From a phage: a DNA stretch of 64,000 nt. Shown here one piece after another: positions 2,032-61,314 of this stretch (the stretch's first letter is position 1; the number at the start of each line of letters is the position of its first letter). Position numbers and translations under genes: made by a program. The stretch lies in the NCBI GenBank assembly GCA_021537435.1, contig GCA_021537435.1_3050.1, one strand, 5' to 3'. The notes beneath the pieces are model-generated. The model did no database searches. It saw only the letters and a list, made by a program, of their open reading frames with translations, and was not told where the DNA came from.

Positions 2032-2318
2032 TAGAACCTCATCTGAAAGCCGTGTGATTTAACATTACCGCCGCCAATATCAGAAATATTAATTTCACGC
2101 GCAATTGAAGGGTCAATGTCAATTTCACGATTAAGTTTAGCGATAGCTAAAGTATCACGCCCATTTACTGTACGGAATTCTAAAGGACAAACCACATCAA
2201 CATAATTTTTAATCGATTCACTGGTAGGTTGCAAATGAGCAGGAAGGTCTTTAGGCGCCTTAGAGAAAACAACTTCACAGAAATTTTTGCGGGTATCAAA
2301 ATAAGTAGTCATAAACAT
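2031..2318 (-). CDS. hypothetical protein (start trimmed to MFMTTYFD)
   Basis: ORF-track 2031..2369; internal ATG at 2316..2318 is preceded by GAGGAAAA SD. Confidence 0.45.
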   Translation of the reverse strand: MFMTTYFDTRKNFCEVVFSKAPKDLPAHLQPTSESIKNYVDVVCPLEFRTVNGRDTLAIAKLNREIDIDPSIAREINISDIGGGNVKSHGFQMRF

Positions 2319-2358
2319 AGTATTTTCCTCAGTAAGGGGCCGAAGCCCCTGTTTTATT

Positions 2359-2724
2359 TTAAATATCAAATTCGTTAAGAACTACATCAAAGATTGCTTC
2401 AAGATGCTCAGGTTTAGCTCTGTTACTCAAAATATGACGAATCCAAGTTTTAACCAGAAGCTTACGATTAGCGCCATTCCAGCAAGGATGGGTCCCTAAA
2501 TCGCGTTGACGAAAATCATCATCCAGAGCGATTTTGAAGTTTGAACCTTCCATTGTGATTGAAACCGTGATGCCATTTTCAAATCGCATATAAACGTAGT
2601 TAGGAGTCATATACTGTTCAATTTCGCATACTGATCCATTTTGATGTTTCCAAAGGCAAATAGTATCAATAGAACCTGCAATACCATTAGAAACATATTT
2701 ACGTTCAAAGTTGATGTAGTTCAT
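2359..2724 (-). CDS. hypothetical protein
   Basis: ORF-track 121 aa; early promoter upstream. Confidence 0.5.
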   Translation of the reverse strand: MNYINFERKYVSNGIAGSIDTICLWKHQNGSVCEIEQYMTPNYVYMRFENGITVSITMEGSNFKIALDDDFRQRDLGTHPCWNGANRKLLVKTWIRHILSNRAKPEHLEAIFDVVLNEFDI

Positions 2725-2757
2725 TTTTATTCTCCGAGATGTTTAATTGCGGTACAG

Positions 2758-2790
2758 GTATATAATATCATATCCTGTACCAAAGTAAAC
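2758..2790 (-). promoter_or_regulatory. T4-type early promoter
   Basis: Minus strand GTTTACT -35 and A/T-rich -10 at about 17 nt. Confidence 0.45.
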
Positions 2791-2792
2791 AA

Positions 2793-3125
2793 TTATTTTA
2801 CTACTTTCCAGTGCTTCATGTCAAGTTTACCAACTTTTTTCATCTTCTCAATCAAACGTTCGGCACGTTGGCGAGCTGTAACATAATACCATTCGCCTAA
2901 TTCATTTTGTTCAATTTTTCCAACGATTACTGTATTCAATTCATAAATCCAACCAGTAAAGAAATTATGAACTTGAATTGTAAAGGTGAAATCTGTTCCC
3001 ATACCTTCTGTTGTTTCTACTTCAATAATATCACCTTCAACTGCCATTAAGAACCACATAGTTTCATCATATTTACCATTGAAGCATTTAGTCTTAACTG
3101 CAGCGTTCAGATTAATCGTTTTCAT
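2793..3125 (-). CDS. hypothetical protein
   Basis: ORF-track 110 aa; early promoter upstream. Confidence 0.5.
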   Translation of the reverse strand: MKTINLNAAVKTKCFNGKYDETMWFLMAVEGDIIEVETTEGMGTDFTFTIQVHNFFTGWIYELNTVIVGKIEQNELGEWYYVTARQRAERLIEKMKKVGKLDMKHWKVVK

Positions 3126-3904: not shown

Positions 3905-4042
3905 TTAAAAATTCTCGTTAGAGATTAAAACTCGGTAGTCACGTTCTTCTGATTTCATCTTCTTTCGACAGATCTCTCAGTTGTAGACTACCACATAGAA
4001 TTGTTCGGTTAACTTATTATTCCGACACCCAATTCATATTAT

Positions 4043-4050
4043 TATTTATA
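4043..4050 (-). promoter_or_regulatory. candidate late promoter TATAAATA upstream of rIII
   Basis: Minus-strand TATAAATA about 140 nt upstream of the rIII ATG. Confidence 0.35.
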
Positions 4051-4386
4051 TCACTTATAAAGACACGGAATAGCTTTATAGTGACAAGTAACGAATTTTT
4101 GTTTAATTTCTTTTGGCTGCTTAAGACCCAGAGCTACAAAAGGATGCGGAACATTTCGAATTTGACCAACTGGAAGAGAAGTCAAATCACCAACTTCGCA
4201 GAAACCTTCAGGAACATCAGGACCGACAGAGTGAACTACACATAGTTCAGGAACTTCACCTTGAACACGTTTACCGATAATAAGTCCTGATTCTGTAACT
4301 TCTTCATCACCGGCTTGTGCAGGTTCAGAAACTAAAATAACATATTCACCGACAGCACGAATTGGTAGCTGTTGTACTTCAGACAT
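4051..4386 (-). CDS. 31: gp31 co-chaperonin (GroES analogue)
   Basis: 111 aa, matches recalled T4 gp31 size, sequence and position. Confidence 0.85.
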
Positions 4387-4442
4387 CGTTTTTCCTTTTT
4401 GTTAACAGATGAATTAATAATAACAAATAATTCTTAAAGCAT

Positions 4443-4751
4443 TTATTTACCAATAAATTGGAGTAAATGCTCAACTTTCATACCATTAACAGAAATCAAT
4501 TTGTCAATAGAAAAACCTCGCCATGCACCAAGTTCAACATCAAATACTGGAATCATGTCAGTAGATTCTTTCCGAGTCGATTCAGTCAATTTACCAGTTT
4601 GCATGGTTGGCATAAAGTCTGCGTCACGAGTACCTTTCATAGTACGAATAGTACCATCAGACTTTTCAAAAACTACGTTTGAAACACCCATGGACAGTTT
4701 AGTTTTCAAAATTTCACGAATTGCTACTTTCTGCTCAGTTGTTAGTTTCAT
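4443..4751 (-). CDS. hypothetical protein (31.1-like)
   Basis: ORF-track 102 aa. Confidence 0.5.
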   Translation of the reverse strand: MKLTTEQKVAIREILKTKLSMGVSNVVFEKSDGTIRTMKGTRDADFMPTMQTGKLTESTRKESTDMIPVFDVELGAWRGFSIDKLISVNGMKVEHLLQFIGK

Positions 4752-4988
4752 TTATTTACCTATCACAGTTTTAATATGAGTTGTTCCACGTTCTTTAAGG
4801 GTGGAAAGTAATTTTTGGCATTTTTCTAAATCAGATTTCCAACTATATGGTCTATCAATACTAGTCCAATCAGTTTTATAATACTGTTTCCATTTAGAGA
4901 AAAAATATTTCTTATACTCTACAGCAAATGAGATGTTCTCGTTAGAATAAGAACTAATTGCTGTGAGCTTTACCAAACGAAATTTCAT
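4752..4988 (-). CDS. hypothetical protein (31.2-like)
   Basis: ORF-track 78 aa. Confidence 0.45.
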   Translation of the reverse strand: MKFRLVKLTAISSYSNENISFAVEYKKYFFSKWKQYYKTDWTSIDRPYSWKSDLEKCQKLLSTLKERGTTHIKTVIGK

Positions 4989-5569
4989 TATTCACCACAG
5001 AATTCGTTGATATTTTCCCAGTTTAACTTATTCAAGTTTTTCTTAGGAACATTAAACACTTCAATACCTGCATTTCGCAGAATATCATCCCAGCCAGGTT
5101 TATTTTTATCGTATGTTTCACAATAAACCAGCTTTTTAATACCAGATTGAGCTATCGCTTTTGCGCAATCTGGACAGGGAGAAAGTGTTACATACATAGT
5201 AGCACCTTCAATAGAAGAACCATTTCGTGCAGCAAACAAAATTGCATTTAGTTCAGCATGAATTTCATTTTTAGACGACCATTCAGAGTGAGCGCTACGG
5301 TGTTCTTTCGCCAAGATAAAACGATCAGTTGAACCAAACGATACACATTCAGGCTTATGACCTTGAATGATAGTATGTTTAGGTTTATTCAACAACCAAC
5401 CTTGCTCGGCAGCATAATCGCAGCAGTTCACACCCCCGGCAGGTGAACCATTATATCCGGTAGAAATAATACGTCCATTCTTTTCAATTACTGCTCCTAC
5501 TTTCCAGGAGCAACATTTTGATTCTTGTGATACTAAATATGCAATTTGAAGTACTGTACTCGCTTTCAT
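4988..5569 (-). CDS. cd: dCMP deaminase
   Basis: 193 aa; cytidine/dCMP deaminase zinc motifs HAE and PCxxC. Confidence 0.9.
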   Translation of the reverse strand: MKASTVLQIAYLVSQESKCCSWKVGAVIEKNGRIISTGYNGSPAGGVNCCDYAAEQGWLLNKPKHTIIQGHKPECVSFGSTDRFILAKEHRSAHSEWSSKNEIHAELNAILFAARNGSSIEGATMYVTLSPCPDCAKAIAQSGIKKLVYCETYDKNKPGWDDILRNAGIEVFNVPKKNLNKLNWENINEFCGE

Positions 5570-5904
5570 TTCATAATCACCAGATAAGCAGATTTAGCAG
5601 TTTCAACACGATAAATTTCGTGACGAAGTTTAGTTATACTTTTAATAACAGAACTAATTATATTCTGCCCATCTTTAAAGCGGTTTTTCTTATCAATAAA
5701 AATTGCACCAGCCATCTTTTTGTGAAGCTCAACTGGATACTTCGTCACAATAATAGCATCATACACAGAAGGATGAATACTATTCACTAGAGTATCATTC
5801 ATTAAAGTTATTCTAATGAACTGTGCTGTTTCAGAGTCAAGCGCTCTATGATCGCCAGTATCATTTTCAAGACAATTATCAATTATATCAGTTAAATTCA
5901 TCAT
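5566..5904 (-). CDS. hypothetical protein
   Basis: ORF-track 112 aa. Confidence 0.45.
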   Translation of the reverse strand: MMNLTDIIDNCLENDTGDHRALDSETAQFIRITLMNDTLVNSIHPSVYDAIIVTKYPVELHKKMAGAIFIDKKNRFKDGQNIISSVIKSITKLRHEIYRVETAKSAYLVIMK

Positions 5905-11128: not shown

Positions 11129-11938
11129 CTAGTCGTTGAACCTTGCTTTGCAATTGTCGCCGTGCCATCGTTTATATGTTGATGGTGATAAATCTTTCTT
11201 ATCACAATATGGACAATTCAATTGAATTCTATTTGGATTTAATTTACATCTGTCATTATGTTTTAGATAAAATCCAGGACCTTTACCAATGTGACCACAG
11301 AAATCACATGTGATTTCTTTTTGTGCAGGATGGGTCCCGTTCTTAACCATTTCTAATGTTTTTGCTGATGTTCTTTTCTTATGGTCTTCTGATAAGAAAT
11401 GATGTGAACCGTCATTTACCCGTTTTGATTGAGTTTCTGACTGCATTTTACCACCGCAAAATACATGAGTACCTTCTTTTATAGCTGCAATATTACGTTC
11501 TTTAACTTTTGCAATATGCTCAGCTTGTTGAAAATTATGTATACCTAATGCAACTCTATTTAAATTAGATTTACGCTGTATTTCACCATCTAAAAGATGA
11601 AATGTACCATTTTCTATCTTAGATTTAATAGAGGCAATATTTTTAGCTCGTACTTCAGGGATATTAAAAATCTGGATTTCTCTAGATTTTGCGGCTTTAG
11701 AAGCTAATTCAGAAATTTCTTCAGGAGAATATTTCATTCTAAGCTTTATAGCATGACAAGCCTGGTAATCTTTTTGAGCTAAATGTATATCATAATGTTC
11801 CTGTATAGAAAGGCACATCAAATTATCTAAATCATTATTTTCACGGTTACCGTCTTTATGATGGATTTCGTATGTTCTTCCATCAGAATCTTTAGGTATA
11901 GGTCCGTTAGCATCTATCCAAATTTTTCTATAGTTCAA
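11129..11938 (-). CDS. I-TevIII: intron-encoded HNH homing endonuclease, full length (TTG start in ORF track)
   Basis: 269 aa inside nrdB intron; EIHHKDGNRENNDLDNL HNH motif and C-terminal CxxC pairs. Confidence 0.8.
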   Translation of the reverse strand: MNYRKIWIDANGPIPKDSDGRTYEIHHKDGNRENNDLDNLMCLSIQEHYDIHLAQKDYQACHAIKLRMKYSPEEISELASKAAKSREIQIFNIPEVRAKNIASIKSKIENGTFHLLDGEIQRKSNLNRVALGIHNFQQAEHIAKVKERNIAAIKEGTHVFCGGKMQSETQSKRVNDGSHHFLSEDHKKRTSAKTLEMVKNGTHPAQKEITCDFCGHIGKGPGFYLKHNDRCKLNPNRIQLNCPYCDKKDLSPSTYKRWHGDNCKARFND

Positions 11939-12780: not shown

Positions 12781-13572
12781 TCACATATTATGTATAAGCA
12801 CTTCGGTCTGAAATGATGCACCCTTCTTTTGCTTCCTATACATGGTTTCAAAATATTCAATTTTGAAATTATTAGAAAGGGCCCAATCTTTTAAAATATA
12901 ATTATTAATATCGTCTGATAGATTATTAGTGATAATAAATTTAGACTTCGATTGTTTAATTTTGTCTAATAATTCTAATTCATCCTTTTCTTCCCAGCCT
13001 GAATATTTAAATTTAGTAGAAAGATACGGCGGGTCAATGAATAAATTTTTGTTTTCAAAATCCAAATCTCTGAATGATTTATTACTAAATGTAAATCGGT
13101 GCTGTCTATTTTTAAATTCAGAAAATTTATCCTGCTGAGACTTATTAAAAGAAGTTCTGGAATACTTGGCTCTATTGGCGAAAGCCGCGTTATAATTCCC
13201 ATTACTAGAAAATCGGATTAACGAACTGAATGAAAATAAATGTAGAACATAAAGATATAATCCGTTTTTGGTTTTATCGTATTCTTTTGACAGATTATAA
13301 AAAGGTGCTGAATCTTTGTCATTCAAATTAAAATCTTCAATAATTTTAACTATATCATTAATTGAAGATGATTTCATCTTTTTATACATGTCTATAAGAG
13401 GAGTATTAATATCATTACATATAACATCTCTCTGACAATTCATAGAAAATCCAAGACCACCACAAAAAGCATCCAAAACAGGCTTATCGTCAAAGCGGTT
13501 TGAAAATTGTCTAATAAATGGCATATACTTATGTTTTGCACCTGGATATGTTATGGCAGGTAGGTCTTTCAT
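12781..13572 (-). CDS. Dam-family (D12 class) DNA N6-adenine methyltransferase, divergent
   Basis: 263 aa; motif I FCGGLG, motif IV DPPY, N-terminal YPGAK; by-eye alignment with recalled T4 and E. coli Dam. Confidence 0.8.
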   Translation of the reverse strand: MKDLPAITYPGAKHKYMPFIRQFSNRFDDKPVLDAFCGGLGFSMNCQRDVICNDINTPLIDMYKKMKSSSINDIVKIIEDFNLNDKDSAPFYNLSKEYDKTKNGLYLYVLHLFSFSSLIRFSSNGNYNAAFANRAKYSRTSFNKSQQDKFSEFKNRQHRFTFSNKSFRDLDFENKNLFIDPPYLSTKFKYSGWEEKDELELLDKIKQSKSKFIITNNLSDDINNYILKDWALSNNFKIEYFETMYRKQKKGASFQTEVLIHNM

Positions 13573-16749: not shown

Positions 16750-17765
16750 CATTATGTTCAGATAAGGTCGTTAATCTTACCCCGGAATTATATCCAGCTG
16801 CATGTCACCATGCAGATCAGACTATATCTCCAACTTGTTAAAGCAAGTTGTCTATCGTTTCGAGTCACTTGACCCTACTCCCCAAAGGGATAGTCGTTAG
16901 GCATTTATGTAGAACCAATTCCATTTATCAGATTTTACACGATAAGTAACTAATCCAGACGAAATTTTAAAATGTCTAGCTGCATCTGCTGCACAATCAA
17001 AAATAACCCCATCACATGAAATCTTTTTAATATTACTAGGCTTTTTACCTTTCATCTTTTCTGATATTTTAGATTTAGTTATGTCTGAATGCTTATGATT
17101 AAAGAATGAATTATTTTCACCTGAACGATTTCTGCATTTACTACAAGTATAAGCAGAAGTTTGTATGCGAACACCGCACTTACAAAACTTATGGGTTTCT
17201 GGATTCCAACGCCCGTTTTTACTTCCGGGTTTACTGTAAAGAGCTTTCCGACCATCAGGTCCAAGTTTAAGCATCTTAGCTTTAACAGTTTTAGAACGTT
17301 TCTTAATAATTTCTTCTTTTAATGGATGCGTAGAACATGTATCACCAAACGTTGCATCAGCAATATTGTATCCATTAATTTTAGAATTAAGCTCTTTAAT
17401 CCAAAAATTTTCTCGTTCAATAATCAAATCTTTCTCATATGGAATTTCTTCCAAAATAGAACATTCAAACACATTACCATGTTTGTTAAAAGACCTCTGA
17501 AGCTTTATAGAAGAATGGCATCCTTTTTCTAAATCTTTAAAATGCCTCTTCCATCTCTTTTCAAAATCTTTAGCACTTCCTACATATACTTTATTGTTTA
17601 AAGTATTTTTAATCTGATAAATTCCGCTTTTCATAAATACCTCTTTAAATATAGAAGTATTTATTAAAGGGCAGTCCTACAATTTAGCACGGGATTGTCT
17701 ACTAGAGAGGTTCCCCGTTTAGATAGATTACAAGTATAAGTCACCTTATACTCAGGCCTCAATTA
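16750..17765 (-). mobile_element. group I self-splicing intron in td (1016 nt)
   Basis: 5' end UAAUUGAGGCCUGAGUAUAAGGUG and 3' end ...CUGAACAUAAUG match the recalled T4 td intron. Confidence 0.9.
16897..17634 (-). CDS. I-TevI: intron-encoded GIY-YIG homing endonuclease
   Basis: 245 aa, MKSGIYQIKNTLNNKVYVGSAKDFEKRWKRH..., matches recalled T4 I-TevI. Confidence 0.9.
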   Translation of the reverse strand: MKSGIYQIKNTLNNKVYVGSAKDFEKRWKRHFKDLEKGCHSSIKLQRSFNKHGNVFECSILEEIPYEKDLIIERENFWIKELNSKINGYNIADATFGDTCSTHPLKEEIIKKRSKTVKAKMLKLGPDGRKALYSKPGSKNGRWNPETHKFCKCGVRIQTSAYTCSKCRNRSGENNSFFNHKHSDITKSKISEKMKGKKPSNIKKISCDGVIFDCAADAARHFKISSGLVTYRVKSDKWNWFYINA

Positions 17766-18359: not shown

Positions 18360-18719
18360 TCAATACGGTTTAGCATCAAATTTTCTCTCAATTTCAGGCG
18401 TGAAATATAATTCTTTACCGCGTTTGGAAAAGCGACCAATAATATGATAATTATTCTCATCAAACGTGATATTGCCGATATCCATAGCTTTCAACCAAAT
18501 ATCGATATTTCTATCCAACTTTATGTCAAAATTCCAATACGGAGAACTATTACCGAAAATACTGCAAGCGGATTCAGTAAAACAACTACTATAAATCTTG
18601 TCTTTAGGAACTACTAATTGATAGACGCCTTTAATAAACTGAGGACCCTGCCATTTTGGTTGTTTCGCGTCTTTTTCTAATAGAATAGGGTAATAATTAA
18701 AATTCATATTTTCCGCCAC
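18360..18719 (-). CDS. hypothetical protein inserted between frd and td
   Basis: ORF-track 119 aa; tightly packed between frd stop and td start. Confidence 0.5.
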   Translation of the reverse strand: MAENMNFNYYPILLEKDAKQPKWQGPQFIKGVYQLVVPKDKIYSSCFTESACSIFGNSSPYWNFDIKLDRNIDIWLKAMDIGNITFDENNYHIIGRFSKRGKELYFTPEIERKFDAKPY

Positions 18720-22004: not shown

Positions 22005-22072
22005 TTTTATTTCCTTTTTAATTTAATTAACAGTTGGTGCTATGACGATGTATGACCTCATAGCTGGTCAGT
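22005..22072 (-). promoter_or_regulatory. gene 32 translational operator (AU-rich tract plus pseudoknot-like structured region)
   Basis: Leader reads ...CUGACCAGCUAUGAGGUCAUACAUCGUCAUAGCACC then UUAAUUAAAUUAAAAAGGAAAUAAAA-AUG, resembling the recalled T4 gene 32 autoregulatory leader. Confidence 0.55.
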
Positions 22073-22087
22073 AAGATAATTATAATC

Positions 22088-22095
22088 TATTTATA
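22088..22095 (-). promoter_or_regulatory. late promoter TATAAATA in gene 32 leader
   Basis: Minus-strand TATAAATA upstream of gene 32. Confidence 0.55.
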
Positions 22096-22103
22096 ATAAG
22101 CAA

Positions 22104-30093: not shown

Positions 30094-34213
<4,120 letters not shown>

Positions 34214-43608: not shown

Positions 43609-45786
43609 TTAGGCCGCAAGGGCCTTCATAGTTTTAGCGATTTGTGAAACTTCATCATCACTTAAAGAGTTGCGATAACCGATGAAGTCGGAAACAATAC
43701 GGAATTTCTTAGTAAACTCAGTAACCATTTTATCACTGTTTTTTGAAGCATTGTTTGATAATACATCAAAAAGATTAGTTACTGTCCAGATGTCATGACC
43801 GATGGTATCTTTTCCACCGTTGAAATATACACCCTGTAATGAACTAACCATATTAGCGAGTCGTGTATATTCTTCAGAAACTTCATCTACGCTGAAGTAC
43901 TTCATCATAAAATCTAACTCAGGATACTTAATAATTTTATCAATATATCGTTTAGCTGAACTTGAATAACCTACATACTTATCATAATCTACAGCATCAA
44001 AAGCATCTACATATAAATCACGTAGAGTTTCAAAAATACATTGACACTGACCGAGTTCTTTTACCTTTTTCTGCAAAAGCGGACGAATAACATAAAATTC
44101 ATTAATGCCAATAAGATTAGCCATACGAGTCAAAATACTCGTAGATGGATGACAAAGCGATGTAGTACCATCCATAGAGAAAATATCAGAACGATGCATG
44201 TATGCTACATAACCAGTAATTTCATCTGCTTCTGATGTTAGCGTAAATAGTTCCTCTTTTTCCCAGCGCCCGTCTTTAATTTCAAACTTAAATGCAGTAG
44301 CAGCTTTAGGGCGAGGAGCTGTACTTTTTACTGCCTTTGGAATATAACTTTTAACTAAAGCTTCAATTTCTGACAAATAATGAATGTTAACTTCATCACT
44401 TTCAAACATTGCCATAATATCAGGAAGCAAATCAATCTGTGATTCTACTTCCGGATTAATAAACAGAAGCCGCTCATTGTGATGAATATTCAAAGTGTTA
44501 TTAAATTCACTATCATCTAACGCGCGTGCTAATCCACGGACAATATTAACGCGATTTTTAATATTATCAATAACAATATTAATTTTTGTCGTATTAATAC
44601 CAAACAGACGATAACTTGATGCAACGGCTGAAGTTTCATGACTTTGCTTAATGCGTTTCAGTCGAGGGTCAAGATTTACTTCATACACAACCCCTGCATT
44701 GCATAACTTACTGTCAGGTTCAAACATGCTCTGCATCTTTTTATATGACAGATTTTTAGTCGTGAATTTGACTGAATTGCTAATCATATAATCTCGAGCA
44801 GAATATCCCATCTTCATCAATTCACGGTATGTATGACGAGGAGATGTAGATTCTTTAAATCGTTTTACATCTTCATTAAATGCTTTCTCACTGAGTTCTT
44901 TAACTCGTTCAATAATATTTTTACGAGTACGATCATCCAGTGAAAGAGCCTCACGAGATGGAGCAATATCAAGTGAACCCATTGGAAACTTAATGTAATT
45001 CACTTCATTGCGAATGCTTAGCCAGTTACGGTCTCTAATAACACCATCGATAGGATAAACAATACCGCCATAGATAGCATATAATCCACCACGATCTGGC
45101 CAGTATCTTTCTGGATTTACACCGTAATAGTCATCAAAATCCGGAAAATAATCAATTTCGCGGTCAAGACCATTAATGATAGCCAAATCTTTGAACGGTC
45201 GCATGATATAAGAAACTTCATAAGCAAAGTTTCTAAAGTCTTTTTCTTCAACTGGAACTACGATTTCAATACCAGTTTTATCATCTGGACCCATTTCTTT
45301 TACGAATGTAGGTTTAATCTGTGGGCCATCACCATCCATGTAAGCTACATAACCACGAATTTCACCTTTATGATACGAAGTAATACTAAACGTATCAGTA
45401 TAACTAAACGGAGATTTAGAACCTAATCCAAATCCGCCAATAAAGTCATTAGATTCGGCTTTAGATGAACTGAAGTATGAATTATACAACCCAGGAGAAT
45501 TATCATCACCCTGAATATCAAAATCACTCATACCCGGACCAAAATCTCGACAAACAAATCGTGGATCTAAACGTCCAGGAACTTGAATGATAAATTTTTC
45601 AGGATTTCCATTGAGAGCATGAGCATCAATCATGTTAGTAATCAATTCACGGACTACTGCGCGAATCTTGTTTGTATACAAATCAGATGACAGAATTTTA
45701 AATACTTTAGGATTTGCTGCGATGCTAAATGCTTTTGATTTAGAACCATTACCAAGAATTGTTTCTTTTTCAGTGGTGATAATCAT
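43609..45786 (-). CDS. rIIA: rIIA
   Basis: 725 aa, GHKL-type ATPase-like N-terminus. Confidence 0.9.
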
Positions 45787-45796
45787 AATTTCCTCA

Positions 45797-46000
45797 TTAA
45801 TTCATATTACGCTTAATAACTTCAGCAACTTCTAGTAGTTCATCTTTAGTTGCAGTGTCGGATTGAATTTTATCTCTAATATCTTTAAAGCGGTTTTTAA
45901 ATTCTTCGGCTTCTCCCATATCGAAAAAGCGTTGAATGATTCTATATTCTCGATGAACTGCTTTATCAAAAAGTTCTAAATTTACTTTATATGATTTCAT
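45797..46000 (-). CDS. hypothetical protein (rIIA.1-like)
   Basis: ORF-track 67 aa. Confidence 0.5.
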
Positions 46001-46022
46001 TTCAATATCCTCATTTGCCCAA

Positions 46023-46055
46023 TTAATTATACCACATCCTTGTGGTAAAGTAAAC
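46023..46055 (-). promoter_or_regulatory. T4-type early promoter for rIIA.1/rIIA
   Basis: Minus strand GTTTACT, 17 nt, TGGTATAAT. Confidence 0.55.
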
Positions 46056-47875
46056 TATTGGCTCATCCATTCTTTACGAAGATCAGCATTATCTCCCATG
46101 AGCATTTCAAAAAGCTCTTTCCAGTTCTCAGGAAGTTTAACAACATCATATACTGGGTTTTGAATCATCTCACGATATTCAGATTTTTCCAAAGAGCCAA
46201 GTCCTTTAATATAACGGATGCTATGTTTAGGTAGAGCATCTTTGGCACTCTCATATTCAGCGACTGTATAAAACCATTCTTGTTTTTTACCGACCTGAGC
46301 GATGATTACAGGAGTTTTGACAAAGCGAATTCTTCCTTGCTCAAACAATTCTGGCCAATTACTAAAAAATCCGAGCAGAGAAGGATAAATGCTTCCTAGA
46401 CCATCATGGTCAGCATCAGTCATAATAGCGATATTATGATAATTCAAGTTTTCAGCTTTTTCACCGAGAACTAGACCAGTGATTGCGCAAATATCAAATA
46501 GTTCTTTGTTTTTAAGCATATCTGCATAAGACATACCCCAACTGTTGAGAACTTTACCACGTAATGGATAACCACCATGAAGTTCTTTATCACGAACATC
46601 AATAAGATATCCGATAGCAGAATCACCCTCAGTCAAGAAAAGAGTAGTGTCAGCATCTTTACCGCAAAGATTCGCTTTAATATGTTTATGAACCTTTGCC
46701 TTAGAGGCCTTTTTAGCTGCTTTAGTTTCAGCTGCTTTTTCTGCTGCCAATTTACGAGCCAAGGCAGCTTCAATAATTGGCATCAAAATAGCTTCATTAT
46801 TTAGAATAGCGCGTGAAATCTTTTTAGCATCAAGTTGAATATGACTACGAATTTCACCAAATGGAGAAGTCAAACGCTCTTTAGTTTGAGAGTCAAATCG
46901 CATGTTTTTCATATCGCGAACAAACATAACGATAGTCAAACATTCTTTAACACGTGCTTTAGTTACATCAATTTTGAATTTACGTTTGATTTGTGGAATA
47001 AGGTCTTCACAAATATCATCCATAACACAGTCAATGTGATGGCCACCATTCTTAGTATGAATGTTATTGACGTACGTCAACTGACGAAAACCATCCGGTG
47101 AACGACCAACCGCAATAGAACAATTTTCTTGTTCTTGAACAATAGCATGTTCATCATACTGTCGTGCATATTTCTTAAAATTGCCCTGAACCTTTTTACC
47201 ATTAAAGGTAAATTGAATATCAGGATAAACAACTGCGAGTGTCTGGAGACGATCCAGTGTAATGTCAAGATAAACTTGGGACAGCTCATTAGTTTCAAAT
47301 GACATAAAATCAGGAATGAAAGTAACACGAGTTCCTTTCCATTTTCCAGGAATATCTTCCCATGATTTATTTTCCATGCCATTTGAACAACGAACTACAA
47401 TATTATTTTGACCGTCGCCAGTTTCACCAACAAACATCACAGAAAAAATGTTTGTCAAACTAGAACCAACACCATTCATACCGCCAGTGACGCGTTCTTT
47501 ATCATCACCAAAGTTACCACCTGCTTTTGGAATAGTCCATGCAGCAACAGGACCAGGAATTTCTTCACCAGTAGGTGTTTTAACCATAGCCTGTGGAATA
47601 CCACGACCGTTATCTTCAACTGTTACCTGATTATTTTTAATAGTAACATTAATTTTATTTGCGAATTTAAACTTAGTACGAATACCTTCATCTACTGAGT
47701 TATCGATAATTTCATCAATAAGCTTAACAAGACCAGGTACATACTGAACACTTTCCCATTTACCAAACAGAAAGCGCTCATGCATTTCATTAGCAGAAGA
47801 GCCAATGTACATGCCGCTACGCTTTTTGATATGTTCAATATCGCTCAGAATTTTAATTTCATTCTTAATCATCAC
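46055..47875 (-). CDS. 39: topoisomerase II large subunit, unsplit (39 plus 60 equivalent)
   Basis: 606 aa continuous ORF with GyrB-like ATPase N-terminus and TOPRIM C-terminus (LTEGDSA, IMTDADHDG). Confidence 0.9.
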   Translation of the reverse strand: MMIKNEIKILSDIEHIKKRSGMYIGSSANEMHERFLFGKWESVQYVPGLVKLIDEIIDNSVDEGIRTKFKFANKINVTIKNNQVTVEDNGRGIPQAMVKTPTGEEIPGPVAAWTIPKAGGNFGDDKERVTGGMNGVGSSLTNIFSVMFVGETGDGQNNIVVRCSNGMENKSWEDIPGKWKGTRVTFIPDFMSFETNELSQVYLDITLDRLQTLAVVYPDIQFTFNGKKVQGNFKKYARQYDEHAIVQEQENCSIAVGRSPDGFRQLTYVNNIHTKNGGHHIDCVMDDICEDLIPQIKRKFKIDVTKARVKECLTIVMFVRDMKNMRFDSQTKERLTSPFGEIRSHIQLDAKKISRAILNNEAILMPIIEAALARKLAAEKAAETKAAKKASKAKVHKHIKANLCGKDADTTLFLTEGDSAIGYLIDVRDKELHGGYPLRGKVLNSWGMSYADMLKNKELFDICAITGLVLGEKAENLNYHNIAIMTDADHDGLGSIYPSLLGFFSNWPELFEQGRIRFVKTPVIIAQVGKKQEWFYTVAEYESAKDALPKHSIRYIKGLGSLEKSEYREMIQNPVYDVVKLPENWKELFEMLMGDNADLRKEWMSQ

Positions 47876-47940
47876 TTATCCTCGTTTGGTTTCGGGAATA
47901 TTATACTCCGGTAATCATAAAGCTAAAGGCCGAAGGCCTT

Positions 47941-48210
47941 TTATTTAAAACGAATAGTTGAATCCTTAAAGAACAGCCCAGAACATACTGTTCCTTCTAC
48001 TTTCTGCCCAGTAGGTCCAATAGCACGAAATCCAGTATGTTGGAAATCATTTTCAGAGCAACCGAACCAGTTATATCCAGTGATTTCAATATTAGTAAAA
48101 CCGCTTGAAGACAAAACTTTGGTTGCATTATCAGCATCAGTACATCCTACTAAAGACACTGCTAATACTAATGCTGCAATAGAACGATTAATATATTTCA
48201 TAATTTTCAC
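47941..48210 (-). CDS. putative lipoprotein
   Basis: Signal peptide with lipobox LVGC. Confidence 0.5.
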   Translation of the reverse strand: MKIMKYINRSIAALVLAVSLVGCTDADNATKVLSSSGFTNIEITGYNWFGCSENDFQHTGFRAIGPTGQKVEGTVCSGLFFKDSTIRFK

Positions 48211-48578
48211 TTAAATTTAATGGCTTGAAGAAGACTAATAATTCTCAAGCGACTTCTTTCATCTTTAACTGTAAAAGAAAGAGGGTCACCAGATTTCATA
48301 GTAATAGTACATTCAAAATCAAAATCTTCGGAAACTTCTTTGAAGAAGTCAAATTCTTCATCATAAATTAGAACATTACTCTGACAACTATGAAGAATTT
48401 TTCCATCATTTCCAGATGCTGTACTAATCATTGTAACATTATGACCTTTCATATCTTCAACGATAAATTCACTAGTCAATATTACAGCATTAATAGAACT
48501 ATTCCTATTACTAGCAGAAAGTAGATATTTCTGTTCTTCACCTTCACGAATGCGATATTTCTTACCGATTTTAAACAT
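48207..48578 (-). CDS. hypothetical protein
   Basis: ORF-track 123 aa. Confidence 0.5.
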   Translation of the reverse strand: MFKIGKKYRIREGEEQKYLLSASNRNSSINAVILTSEFIVEDMKGHNVTMISTASGNDGKILHSCQSNVLIYDEEFDFFKEVSEDFDFECTITMKSGDPLSFTVKDERSRLRIISLLQAIKFK

Positions 48579-48759: not shown

Positions 48760-49179
48760 TTATTCCTTAAAGTGTGCTTTCAACATCTGATACAAGGACC
48801 ATGCCTGTTCATTATTTTCAATAGTAACTTTCATGACCGGGAATTCTGTGAAATCTTCTATTTGTTCTTGCTCTTCCTGCTTTTGCTCTTCGGACGCTTG
48901 ATATGGATTTCCAACTTCGTCAAAGAACTCTGCTTCATTCGTGGAGAGCCAGATAAAGTTTTCATCAAGGATATCACCGCCTGTTGCGTATCCAACCGTG
49001 CCAGTAGATGTCACAATTTTAGTAGGACGACTGAGATGGTCAACATCTAAAATTTTAAAAGGTTCCATACCTAAACGTCGTGCGTAGATTCCGTTATCAG
49101 TATGGTCTTTAATAAAAGCTTCCTGAGCTTGTTTATTTTTAAATTGATACCATTTATTAACTTCAAATCTAATAGCCAT
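48760..49179 (-). CDS. hypothetical acidic protein (goF-like position)
   Basis: ORF-track 139 aa. Confidence 0.45.
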
Positions 49180-58973: not shown

Positions 58974-59492
58974 TCAATAACCTCGGTCTTGACGAGCGAA
59001 GTTTTCAGCATTTTTCAGATAATAAAGTTTAAAGATTTCTTCAGCCGTAAGACCGAGACCTTGGAACATGTTCAGAACGAAATGAAGAATATCAATCATT
59101 TCGAATTTAATTTCCAACTGGTCTTGTGGAGATAAGTCAGTAATCAGAGTTTCACGACGTTCACCGTGTTGCGACTTCCACGGCTTCCATACAGCAGATG
59201 CATCTTTTTCGCCATTGCTCATACCACCAAGAGAAGTCAGAAGTTCGCGGAATTCATCATCAATATAATCTTTCTGATTACGCAACCAATCAACAACTTC
59301 ACCTGCAGTAGCCAAATCATCAGGATGACGGTTATATTCAGGTTTATCTTTAGCTAAACGAACCTGCAGAGATTTCTGCATATCAAGCATAACCTGCAGC
59401 GGGTCTTTTTCATCACCGAGAATATCCCAGTATTCATTTTGAGCTTTATCAGCACCTTCGATCAGTTGACTACATTCGTTAAAGTATGCCAT
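58974..59492 (-). CDS. 56: dCTPase/dUTPase gp56 (MazG-like)
   Basis: 172 aa from MAYFNECSQ; ORF-track extension is hydrophobic and overlaps the promoter. Confidence 0.7.
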   Translation of the reverse strand: MAYFNECSQLIEGADKAQNEYWDILGDEKDPLQVMLDMQKSLQVRLAKDKPEYNRHPDDLATAGEVVDWLRNQKDYIDDEFRELLTSLGGMSNGEKDASAVWKPWKSQHGERRETLITDLSPQDQLEIKFEMIDILHFVLNMFQGLGLTAEEIFKLYYLKNAENFARQDRGY

Positions 59493-59521
59493 TATTTTTC
59501 CTTTCAATTCATGGGTTAGTA

Positions 59522-59551
59522 GATTAATTATACAATAAATATATAAAGCAA
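59522..59551 (-). promoter_or_regulatory. MotA-dependent middle promoter candidate for gene 56
   Basis: Minus strand: ATTGCTTTA, 13 nt, then TGTATAAT. Confidence 0.45.
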
Positions 59552-59563
59552 TAAGGAGGATAT

Positions 59564-59764
59564 ATGGTACAAAAATTAATGGCACTTGTTAATGCCATAA
59601 AAGGTAATAAAAAACGTATAGCTTTTACTATTTCTGCTATGGTAGGAATTTTACTCTGGAATTTTGTTTTATCACCAATTGCTATTGCTCATGGTGTTAA
59701 TATTCCAGTAATTACTCTTGATACATTCGTAGATTTAGCATTTGCTTTGGTTGGGTTAATTTAA
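59564..59764 (+). CDS. small two-helix membrane protein on the opposite strand
   Basis: 66 aa with AAGGAGG SD 4 nt before ATG; only plus-strand ORF in this early block not antisense to a gene body. Confidence 0.4.
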   Translation: MVQKLMALVNAIKGNKKRIAFTISAMVGILLWNFVLSPIAIAHGVNIPVITLDTFVDLAFALVGLI

Positions 59765-60957: not shown

Positions 60958-61314
60958 TTAACCTCTATTCATAAAAGCATTAAAAATTTGGTCATCAATA
61001 GATGGAATAGCAACCTTTTCTACATCATTTAACAAATCATTAATTTCATCAGATAGCATAACGCATGTACCTTTATTTCCTGTAATTGTTACTGCACAAT
61101 TACGAACGTTTTCTTTATCAAATTTTAGGTTAATATTTTCGTAGTGAAAATCCTTTAATGCCGAATATATTTTTAAAATGAAATTGTCTTTTACTACAAT
61201 AAACCCAACTTCACTATTAAAACGTGGTTCATGGAAACTGTAATAAACCTTTTCATCTATAAAATCGTATGATATTTTTTCCATTTTTAAATATGAAAAT
61301 TCAGAACTATACAT
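60958..61314 (-). CDS. hypothetical protein
   Basis: ORF-track 118 aa. Confidence 0.5.
   Translation of the reverse strand: MYSSEFSYLKMEKISYDFIDEKVYYSFHEPRFNSEVGFIVVKDNFILKIYSALKDFHYENINLKFDKENVRNCAVTITGNKGTCVMLSDEINDLLNDVEKVAIPSIDDQIFNAFMNRG

Follow-up and report, generated by a model that had tools for sequence, protein, structure and literature searches.

An unsplit topoisomerase II large-subunit gene with an unoccupied MobA cassette site in a T2/T6-like Tequatrovirus locus

The topoisomerase II of phages T2 and T6 consists of two subunits, and gp39 together with gp52 from T6 forms an active enzyme (PMC11461880). The T4 state of the large-subunit gene is regarded as the product of a homing-endonuclease insertion, and repeated, recent insertion at the same site is described in bioRxiv 10.1101/2022.08.31.505936. 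The same preprint, in summarising Bonocora 2011, states that MobA nicks T2 gene 39 inside a 64-nt stretch and transfers its cassette, the transfer from a mobA+ phage into T2 being an experimental result. In Manning & Atkins (2022), the nick is placed approximately, ~20 nt upstream of the gap position, and the element is described as deleting 64 nt of the parental gene and replacing them with a 'homR' copy that is 67–81% identical. The authors also describe a 'Parental Topo2L', which is unsplit and 96–99% identical to its mobA+ relative. The biology of the unsplit large subunit is already known from this published work (Bonocora 2011; Manning & Atkins 2022; T4/T6 cryo-EM 2024), and we report here how the corresponding locus is arranged in one further phage.

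The window that we analysed is the whole 64,000-nt stretch of phage DNA. The listing of its open reading frames places one minus-strand frame at 46055..47875, which comprises 606 codons when counted from a GTG, and the codon listing indicates zero internal stops within it. At a G+C content of about 36%, stops make up ~7% of random triplets, from which the probability of a random open frame of 606 codons is estimated as ~1e-19. An earlier note on this DNA had reported a single frame covering both the ATPase and the TOPRIM regions, and this is borne out by the uninterrupted frame and by the motifs of both domains; the stretch quoted there (IAIMTDADHDGLGSIYPSLLG and IAIMTDADHDGLGSIYP) lies inside it. 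The length given in that note needs a small correction and its coordinates need a strand, which is minus: the figure of 606 amino acids counts the GTG, which is directly 3' of an in-frame TAA. The sequence GAGG (47883..47880) stands 7 nt before an ATG at 47872, translation from this ATG gives the N-terminus MIKNEIK, which is that of T4 gp39, and the homologues in close relatives are annotated as 1818-nt coding sequences from ATG. For these reasons the gene is best given as 46055..47872, with the ATG as the probable true start and a product of 605 residues. We consider it almost certain that this is an intact, conventionally translated Tequatrovirus gene 39 in which the site of the MobA cassette is unoccupied, and nothing in its sequence speaks against such a reading. 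The features discussed below are collected in Table 1.

Table 1. Positions of the features of the gene 39 locus and of the partner-subunit gene within the window.
Feature	Position	Strand	Basis and remarks
Gene 39, unsplit large (GyrB/ParE-like) subunit of phage type IIA DNA topoisomerase	46055..47872	-	605 amino acids and stop; blastp, PHROG 543, PDB entry 8ylu
In-frame GTG, mechanical ORF start, probably not the initiation codon	47873..47875	-	Context GGA TAA GTG ATG
GHKL ATPase core, residues 47–149	47426..47734	-	Pfam HATPase_c, 2e-09
Transducer domain, residues 250–384	46721..47125	-	Pfam DNA_gyraseB, 1.4e-13
TOPRIM acidic motif EGDSA, residues 415–419	46616..46630	-	Motif search; on gp39 in T4
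TOPRIM DxDxD motif DADHDG, residues 486–491	46400..46417	-	Motif search; on gp60 in T4
TOPRIM C-terminal associated domain, residues 519–604	46061..46318	-	Pfam TOPRIM_C, 4.2e-07, 30.7 bits; on gp60 in T4
64-nt stretch, about codons 473–494, corresponding to the unoccupied MobA homing site	46391..46454	-	blastn break points, fine alignment
Putative T4-type middle promoter	47900..47925	-	MotA-box-like TAGCTTTA (47925..47918), 12-nt spacer, TATAAT (47905..47900)
GC-rich hairpin AAGGCCTTCGGCCTT, directly after the stop of the upstream ORF	47926..47940	-	Sequence reading
rIIA.1, downstream neighbour	45797..46000	-	Pfam T4_RIIA1, 1.4e-33; same position as after T4 gene 60
Gene 52, GyrA/ParC-like partner, 442 amino acids	37902..39230	-	Pfam DNA_topoisoIV, 1.7e-76; PHROG 551, 7.7e-221

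The protein is assigned to PHROG 543, 'DNA topoisomerase II large subunit' (2.4e-295), and the Pfam domains follow one another along it in the order HATPase_c, DNA_gyraseB, Toprim and TOPRIM_C. The ATPase motifs EIIDNSVDE (54–62), DNGRGIP (87–93) and GMNGVGSS (131–138) are present as the N-box, G1 and G2 motifs, respectively, and the transducer retains the QTK loop (329–331; QTKERL, 329–334) with its lysine. The Pfam Toprim match (residues 410–492) is weak, with a score of 17.5 bits against a cut-off of 23.1; the EGDSA and DADHDG motifs are found in the same reading frame, which places the whole TOPRIM on one chain. The alignment with gyrase B, ParE/topo IV and eukaryotic topo II chains is unbroken across residues 10–603, and the protein also matches the artificial fusion of T4 gp39 and gp60 in PDB entry 8yo3. 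The partner subunit gp52 is encoded in the same window and has the active-site motif AASRY, the last two residues of which are Arg116 and Tyr117 as read from the translation. Conventional translation of gene 39 would give one 605-residue chain with the GHKL ATPase, the transducer and a complete TOPRIM, and two gp39 chains would combine with two of gp52 to form an A2B2 type IIA topoisomerase, a two-subunit enzyme of the T2/T6 type. Since the site is unoccupied, neither reassembly of subunits nor ribosome bypass would be needed. We infer expression, enzyme activity, the ATG start and sensitivity to MobA from the near-identity of the gene to those of T2 and T6.

Comparison with T4 locates the difference between the two genes. 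In blastp, residues 2–474 of the 606-residue frame match residues 1–473 of T4 gp39 (466 of 473 identical, 99%) and residues 473–606 match residues 27–160 of T4 gp60 (128 of 134 identical, 96%), and the two matches abut. At the nucleotide level, blastn pairs window 48203..46455 with T4 5661..3911 and window 46390..45700 with T4 2793..2103, such that 64 nt of continuous coding sequence (46454..46391) stand in the window against 1117 nt in T4. The T4 segment contains a 43-codon tail of gene 39, a mobA pseudogene with 60.1, a new start for gene 60, a diverged copy of the TOPRIM stretch and the 50-nt gap. This T4 copy is ~74% identical to the window (hand count from the alignment), whereas the flanks are 96–100% identical; both the replacement of 64 nt and the ~74% copy fit the 'homR' description of Manning & Atkins. 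Residues 474–516 of T4 gp39 and 1–26 of T4 gp60 are without counterpart in the window protein. The alignment with T4 genes 39, mobA and 60 proposed in the earlier note thus shows a gene collinear with gp39 plus gp60 and lacking the whole 1117-nt insertion. The same note was correct in ascribing genes 39 and 60, mobA and a 50-nt bypass to T4, but it had the ATPase and TOPRIM regions separated by the split, and the break is in fact inside the TOPRIM: the weak Pfam Toprim match spans the T4 break at residue 473, with EGDSA remaining on gp39 and DADHDG on gp60. The cryo-EM paper likewise states that the T4 break is inside the TOPRIM (PMC11461880).

We note a further difference from T4 away from this site. 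Codons 326–328 of gene 39 in the T4 reference (NC_000866) read TTG ATT CGT (LIR), whereas the window (46889..46897) and T2 have TTT GAC TCT (FDS), and the difference sits directly before the conserved QTK loop. A pattern of this kind points to a frameshift that has been compensated, or else to an old error in the sequencing of the T4 reference.

At the point where T4 ribosomes take off, the window reads GAT GGT CTA GGA AGC (codons 490–494), and Gly491 is encoded by GGT (46402..46400). T4 has GAT GGA UAG at the same point and resumes after the gap with GGA UUA GGU UCU, the first GGA being the take-off codon that is followed by UAG and the 50-nt gap. No stop codon, matched GGA pair or CUUCGG-capped hairpin was found at the take-off-equivalent position of the window, and the coding region is continuous there, as the earlier note had maintained. 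Searches of the whole 64-kb window with the T4 insert (blastn-short and tblastx) gave no mobA or other cassette sequence; they matched the native TOPRIM stretch only, the 20 codons that the cassette duplicates, and tblastx gave no match in the 64-kb window to the extension-coding parts of the insert. When 20-mers from the 50-nt gap were searched allowing up to four mismatches, a single match was obtained at ~45547, outside both the gene and the site. Neither an HNH mobA frame or pseudogene splitting the TOPRIM-coding region nor a 50-nt gap with GGA take-off and landing codons, stop and stem-loop is found in the window, and the C-terminal (ORF1) and N-terminal (ORF2) extensions encoded by the cassette are likewise missing from the 605 residues, which are collinear with T2. 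The earlier claim that the phage has neither a gene 60 bypass element nor mobA is confirmed by these empty searches and by the presence of 64 nt in place of 1117.

A cryptic bypass or frameshift within the frame, or a non-functional gene, is scarcely conceivable given these data. The frame does contain eight in-frame GGA codons, and a small AT-rich 8-bp hairpin (UCAUAAUA/UAUUAUGA) can be drawn in the coding sequence at codons 478–485, but T2 has the same hairpin and the local fold is no more stable than that of shuffled sequence, 17 of 200 shuffles folding as well. The z-scores of the local fold are -1.45 for the window and -1.68 for T2, many shuffles being as stable as either, and -2.48 for T4; the T4 region folds with the take-off hairpin, which is not seen in the fold of the window site. 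Gene 39 has no internal stops and its catalytic motifs are all intact, and identity to T2, T6 and T4 extends over the whole length, such that conserved residues would be lost with any segment that was skipped. In Rfam, neither the window nor the T4 39–60 region gave a family at gathering score, and the scan is without bearing on the bypass element, for which Rfam has no usable model. The frameshift or bypass signature named in the earlier note as grounds for doubt was therefore looked for and not found, and at the equivalent of its GGA take-off codon there is GGT, with neither a matched GGA pair nor a take-off hairpin.

The intact, conventionally translated gene 39 described here has the common arrangement. 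We surveyed the site with a 181-nt query, chosen to be too short for the fragments flanking a 1.1-kb insertion to be joined. Of the 1047 phage records that it matches, 994 are contiguous here, among them T4-like phages of Klebsiella, Acinetobacter, Enterobacter and Serratia at 70–80% identity; the T4 cassette is present in 43 records only. A count of 522 contiguous among 564 records, obtained using a 2.6-kb query, was dropped as a tally of split and unsplit genes because pieces around the 1.1-kb insertion can be joined by a query of that length. The unsplit arrangement is the majority state and no remarkable exception; the rare exception is the split, ribosome-hopping form of T4. Because the TOPRIM is contiguous in the cellular and eukaryotic outgroups, because the phage survey points the same way and because the cassette is published as a homing element, we regard the unsplit gene as the ancestral form and that of T4 as the derived one, in support of the 'ancestral fused arrangement' of the earlier note.

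Two histories in which the unsplit gene would be a derived state were weighed against this. In the first, a MobA cassette present in the ancestor was later lost by secondary re-fusion ('hit and run'). Re-fused genes are described for Aeromonas phages by Manning & Atkins (2022). About 70 additional residues, encoded by the cassette as C- and N-terminal extensions, are retained in such genes, whereas the 605-residue window protein has none relative to T2; tblastx with the T4 insert finds the native TOPRIM stretch only, and the 64-nt site is of the T2 type rather than the diverged copy found in T4 (~74% identical). mobA+ and mobA- Tequatroviruses are 96–99% identical and freely recombining, and a clean replacement by gene conversion, with an unsplit phage in the same infection as donor, would be traceless. 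On balance we judge re-fusion to be extremely unlikely here. The second history makes direct use of such conversion: the unsplit allele would be a revertant, the site of a mobA+ ancestor having been cleanly emptied by conversion to the unsplit allele of a co-infecting phage. A naive site and an emptied site would be expected to have the same sequence, and we hold this history to be improbable, though slightly less so than re-fusion. If it were true, Tequatroviruses would cycle between occupied and empty states in a full homing cycle, of which the window would represent the 'emptied' stage. Our preferred interpretation remains an ancestral gene 39 whose site is unoccupied.

The surroundings of gene 39 are those expected of a T4 relative. 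The order rIIB–rIIA–rIIA.1–39 is that of T4 and its relatives, with rIIB, rIIA and rIIA.1 downstream of gene 39 and homologues of 39.2, goF and cef upstream, as in T4. A σ70 scan upstream of gene 39 found no promoter. The putative MotA-type element listed in Table 1, the geometry of which is that generally known for T4 middle promoters, is a consensus match from which gene 39 would probably be transcribed. The terminator scan did not call the GC-rich hairpin next to it, as this is without a T-run. We also note a strong σ70-like match at 46026..46054 on the minus strand (TTTACT, 17 nt, TG-TATAAT; 10 of 12), within the 54 nt that separate rIIA.1 from the stop of gene 39; it probably serves rIIA.1 and rIIA. 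Upstream, an additional 123-residue ORF (48207..48578, minus strand) lies between the gene at the 39.1 position and 39.2 and is without a counterpart in T4. This ORF and the adjacent goF homologue (48760..49179) both fall in PHROG 622, and the former looks like a goF-like paralogue. At 47941..48210 there is an ORF of 89 residues that is different from T4 39.1 and carries a lipoprotein-like signal (…LVGC).

Collinearity with T4 holds across the window, from T4 position ~127 kb past the conventional origin to ~22 kb, and there are several further places at which the two diverge. Some of these concern mobile elements. Two T4 genes for free-standing homing endonucleases, variable mobile elements like mobA, are absent: segG, between genes 32 and 59 in T4 (window 22067..22103), and segF, between soc and 56 (window 58975..59011). 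The td intron, with I-TevI, seems to be in place, as window 13620–18317 matches T4 contiguously. The nrdB intron region is 476 nt longer than that of T4 and holds a full-length 269-residue HNH ORF (11129..11938, minus strand; PF13392, 6e-13) that is consistent with an intact I-TevIII, an enzyme which is truncated in T4 and reported to be active in RB3.

Other differences involve DNA modification. At the position that mobE and nrdB.1 occupy in T4, between nrdA and nrdB, the window encodes a 263-residue D12-class N6-adenine DNA methyltransferase (12781..13572, minus strand; PF02086, 5.5e-24; DPPY motif). Only eight of 493 matching phage records carry at least 80% of this query, and the gene is a rare occupant of the nrdA–nrdB insertion hotspot. 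The canonical dam gene (T4 16846–17625, between genes 56 and 61) is missing at 59532..59553, where ~20 nt replace the 899 nt of T4. The absence of dam together with the methyltransferase at the nrdA–nrdB site suggests that a different adenine methylase at that locus replaces dam. The neighbouring gene 56 (dCTPase/dUTPase; 58974..59585, minus strand) has 76.6% DNA identity to T4 within surroundings of 92–97%, which suggests a mosaic replacement adjoining the missing segF and dam.

The remaining differences affect smaller genes and genes 37 and 38. A 119-residue ORF (18360..18719, minus strand) is inserted between td and frd, with ~400 additional nt; it has no T4 counterpart and no Pfam match. 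The place of the 208-residue T4 gene 61.2 is taken by a 118-residue ORF (60958..61314, minus strand), which is therefore a shortened or replaced version of 61.2; its match to Pfam AdfA (anti-DarT factor A; 4e-08) covers the C-terminal half of that family. The plus-strand region 30094..34213 contains gene 37 (1101 residues) and gene 38 (263 residues, glycine-rich; PF05268, 4e-72, and Gp38_N), which are of the T2/T6 adhesin type and show no DNA-level alignment with T4 37 and 38. In receptor recognition, too, the phage thus resembles T2.

The window has a MobA target of the T2 type that is not disrupted by the 50-nt insert. Because MobA nicks a T2 site from which this empty one hardly differs, the phage would be susceptible to acquiring the cassette when a mobA+ phage infects the same cell, and its practical interest lies in possible use as a recipient in homing experiments. 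For annotation, neither a join nor a bypass feature is required for gene 39 here, which should start from the ATG at 47872. That the phage has the standard two-subunit T-even topoisomerase II is confirmed, which in itself matters little.

Comparison of the gene with those of known systems shows near-identity to that of T2. The T2 gene 39 product (PV958097.1) likewise has 605 residues, of which 604 are identical, F70L being the sole amino-acid difference; the genes differ at 55 of 1818 nt (97.0% identity), mostly synonymously, and in the 111 nt around the site there are two synonymous differences, one of them within the 64 nt. The T2 gene has the same length, occupies the same place beside rIIA.1 and rIIA and lacks the cassette, as in the window. 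The rest of the genome is a different Tequatrovirus mosaic from T2, and over 24 kb the best Tequatrovirus records in the database share 95–97% identity with the window. For T6 gp39 (PDB entries 8ylu, 8yo1 and others; PMC11461880), residues 1–605 of the window protein match residues 1–605 of the chain with 1385 bits; the 8ylu chain has 611 residues, six beyond the native 605, and the construct had a C-terminal 6×His tag. There is no functionally notable difference between the two proteins, and the T6 enzyme is likewise formed from two subunits with gp52. From this full-length match to an active gp39 we infer that the window enzyme would relax DNA in an ATP-dependent manner. With one residue separating the protein from T2 and a full-length match to T6, the 'T2/T6-like' label of the earlier note is well founded. 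The T4 locus, with genes 39, mobA/60.1 and 60, encodes the same enzyme between the same flanking genes. The extension-homologous inserts of the re-fused Topo2L class (clade 7 of Manning & Atkins, Aeromonas) are not found in the window gene, which is instead another example of 'Parental Topo2L' (Manning & Atkins 2022; for example RB14), from which it shows no difference.
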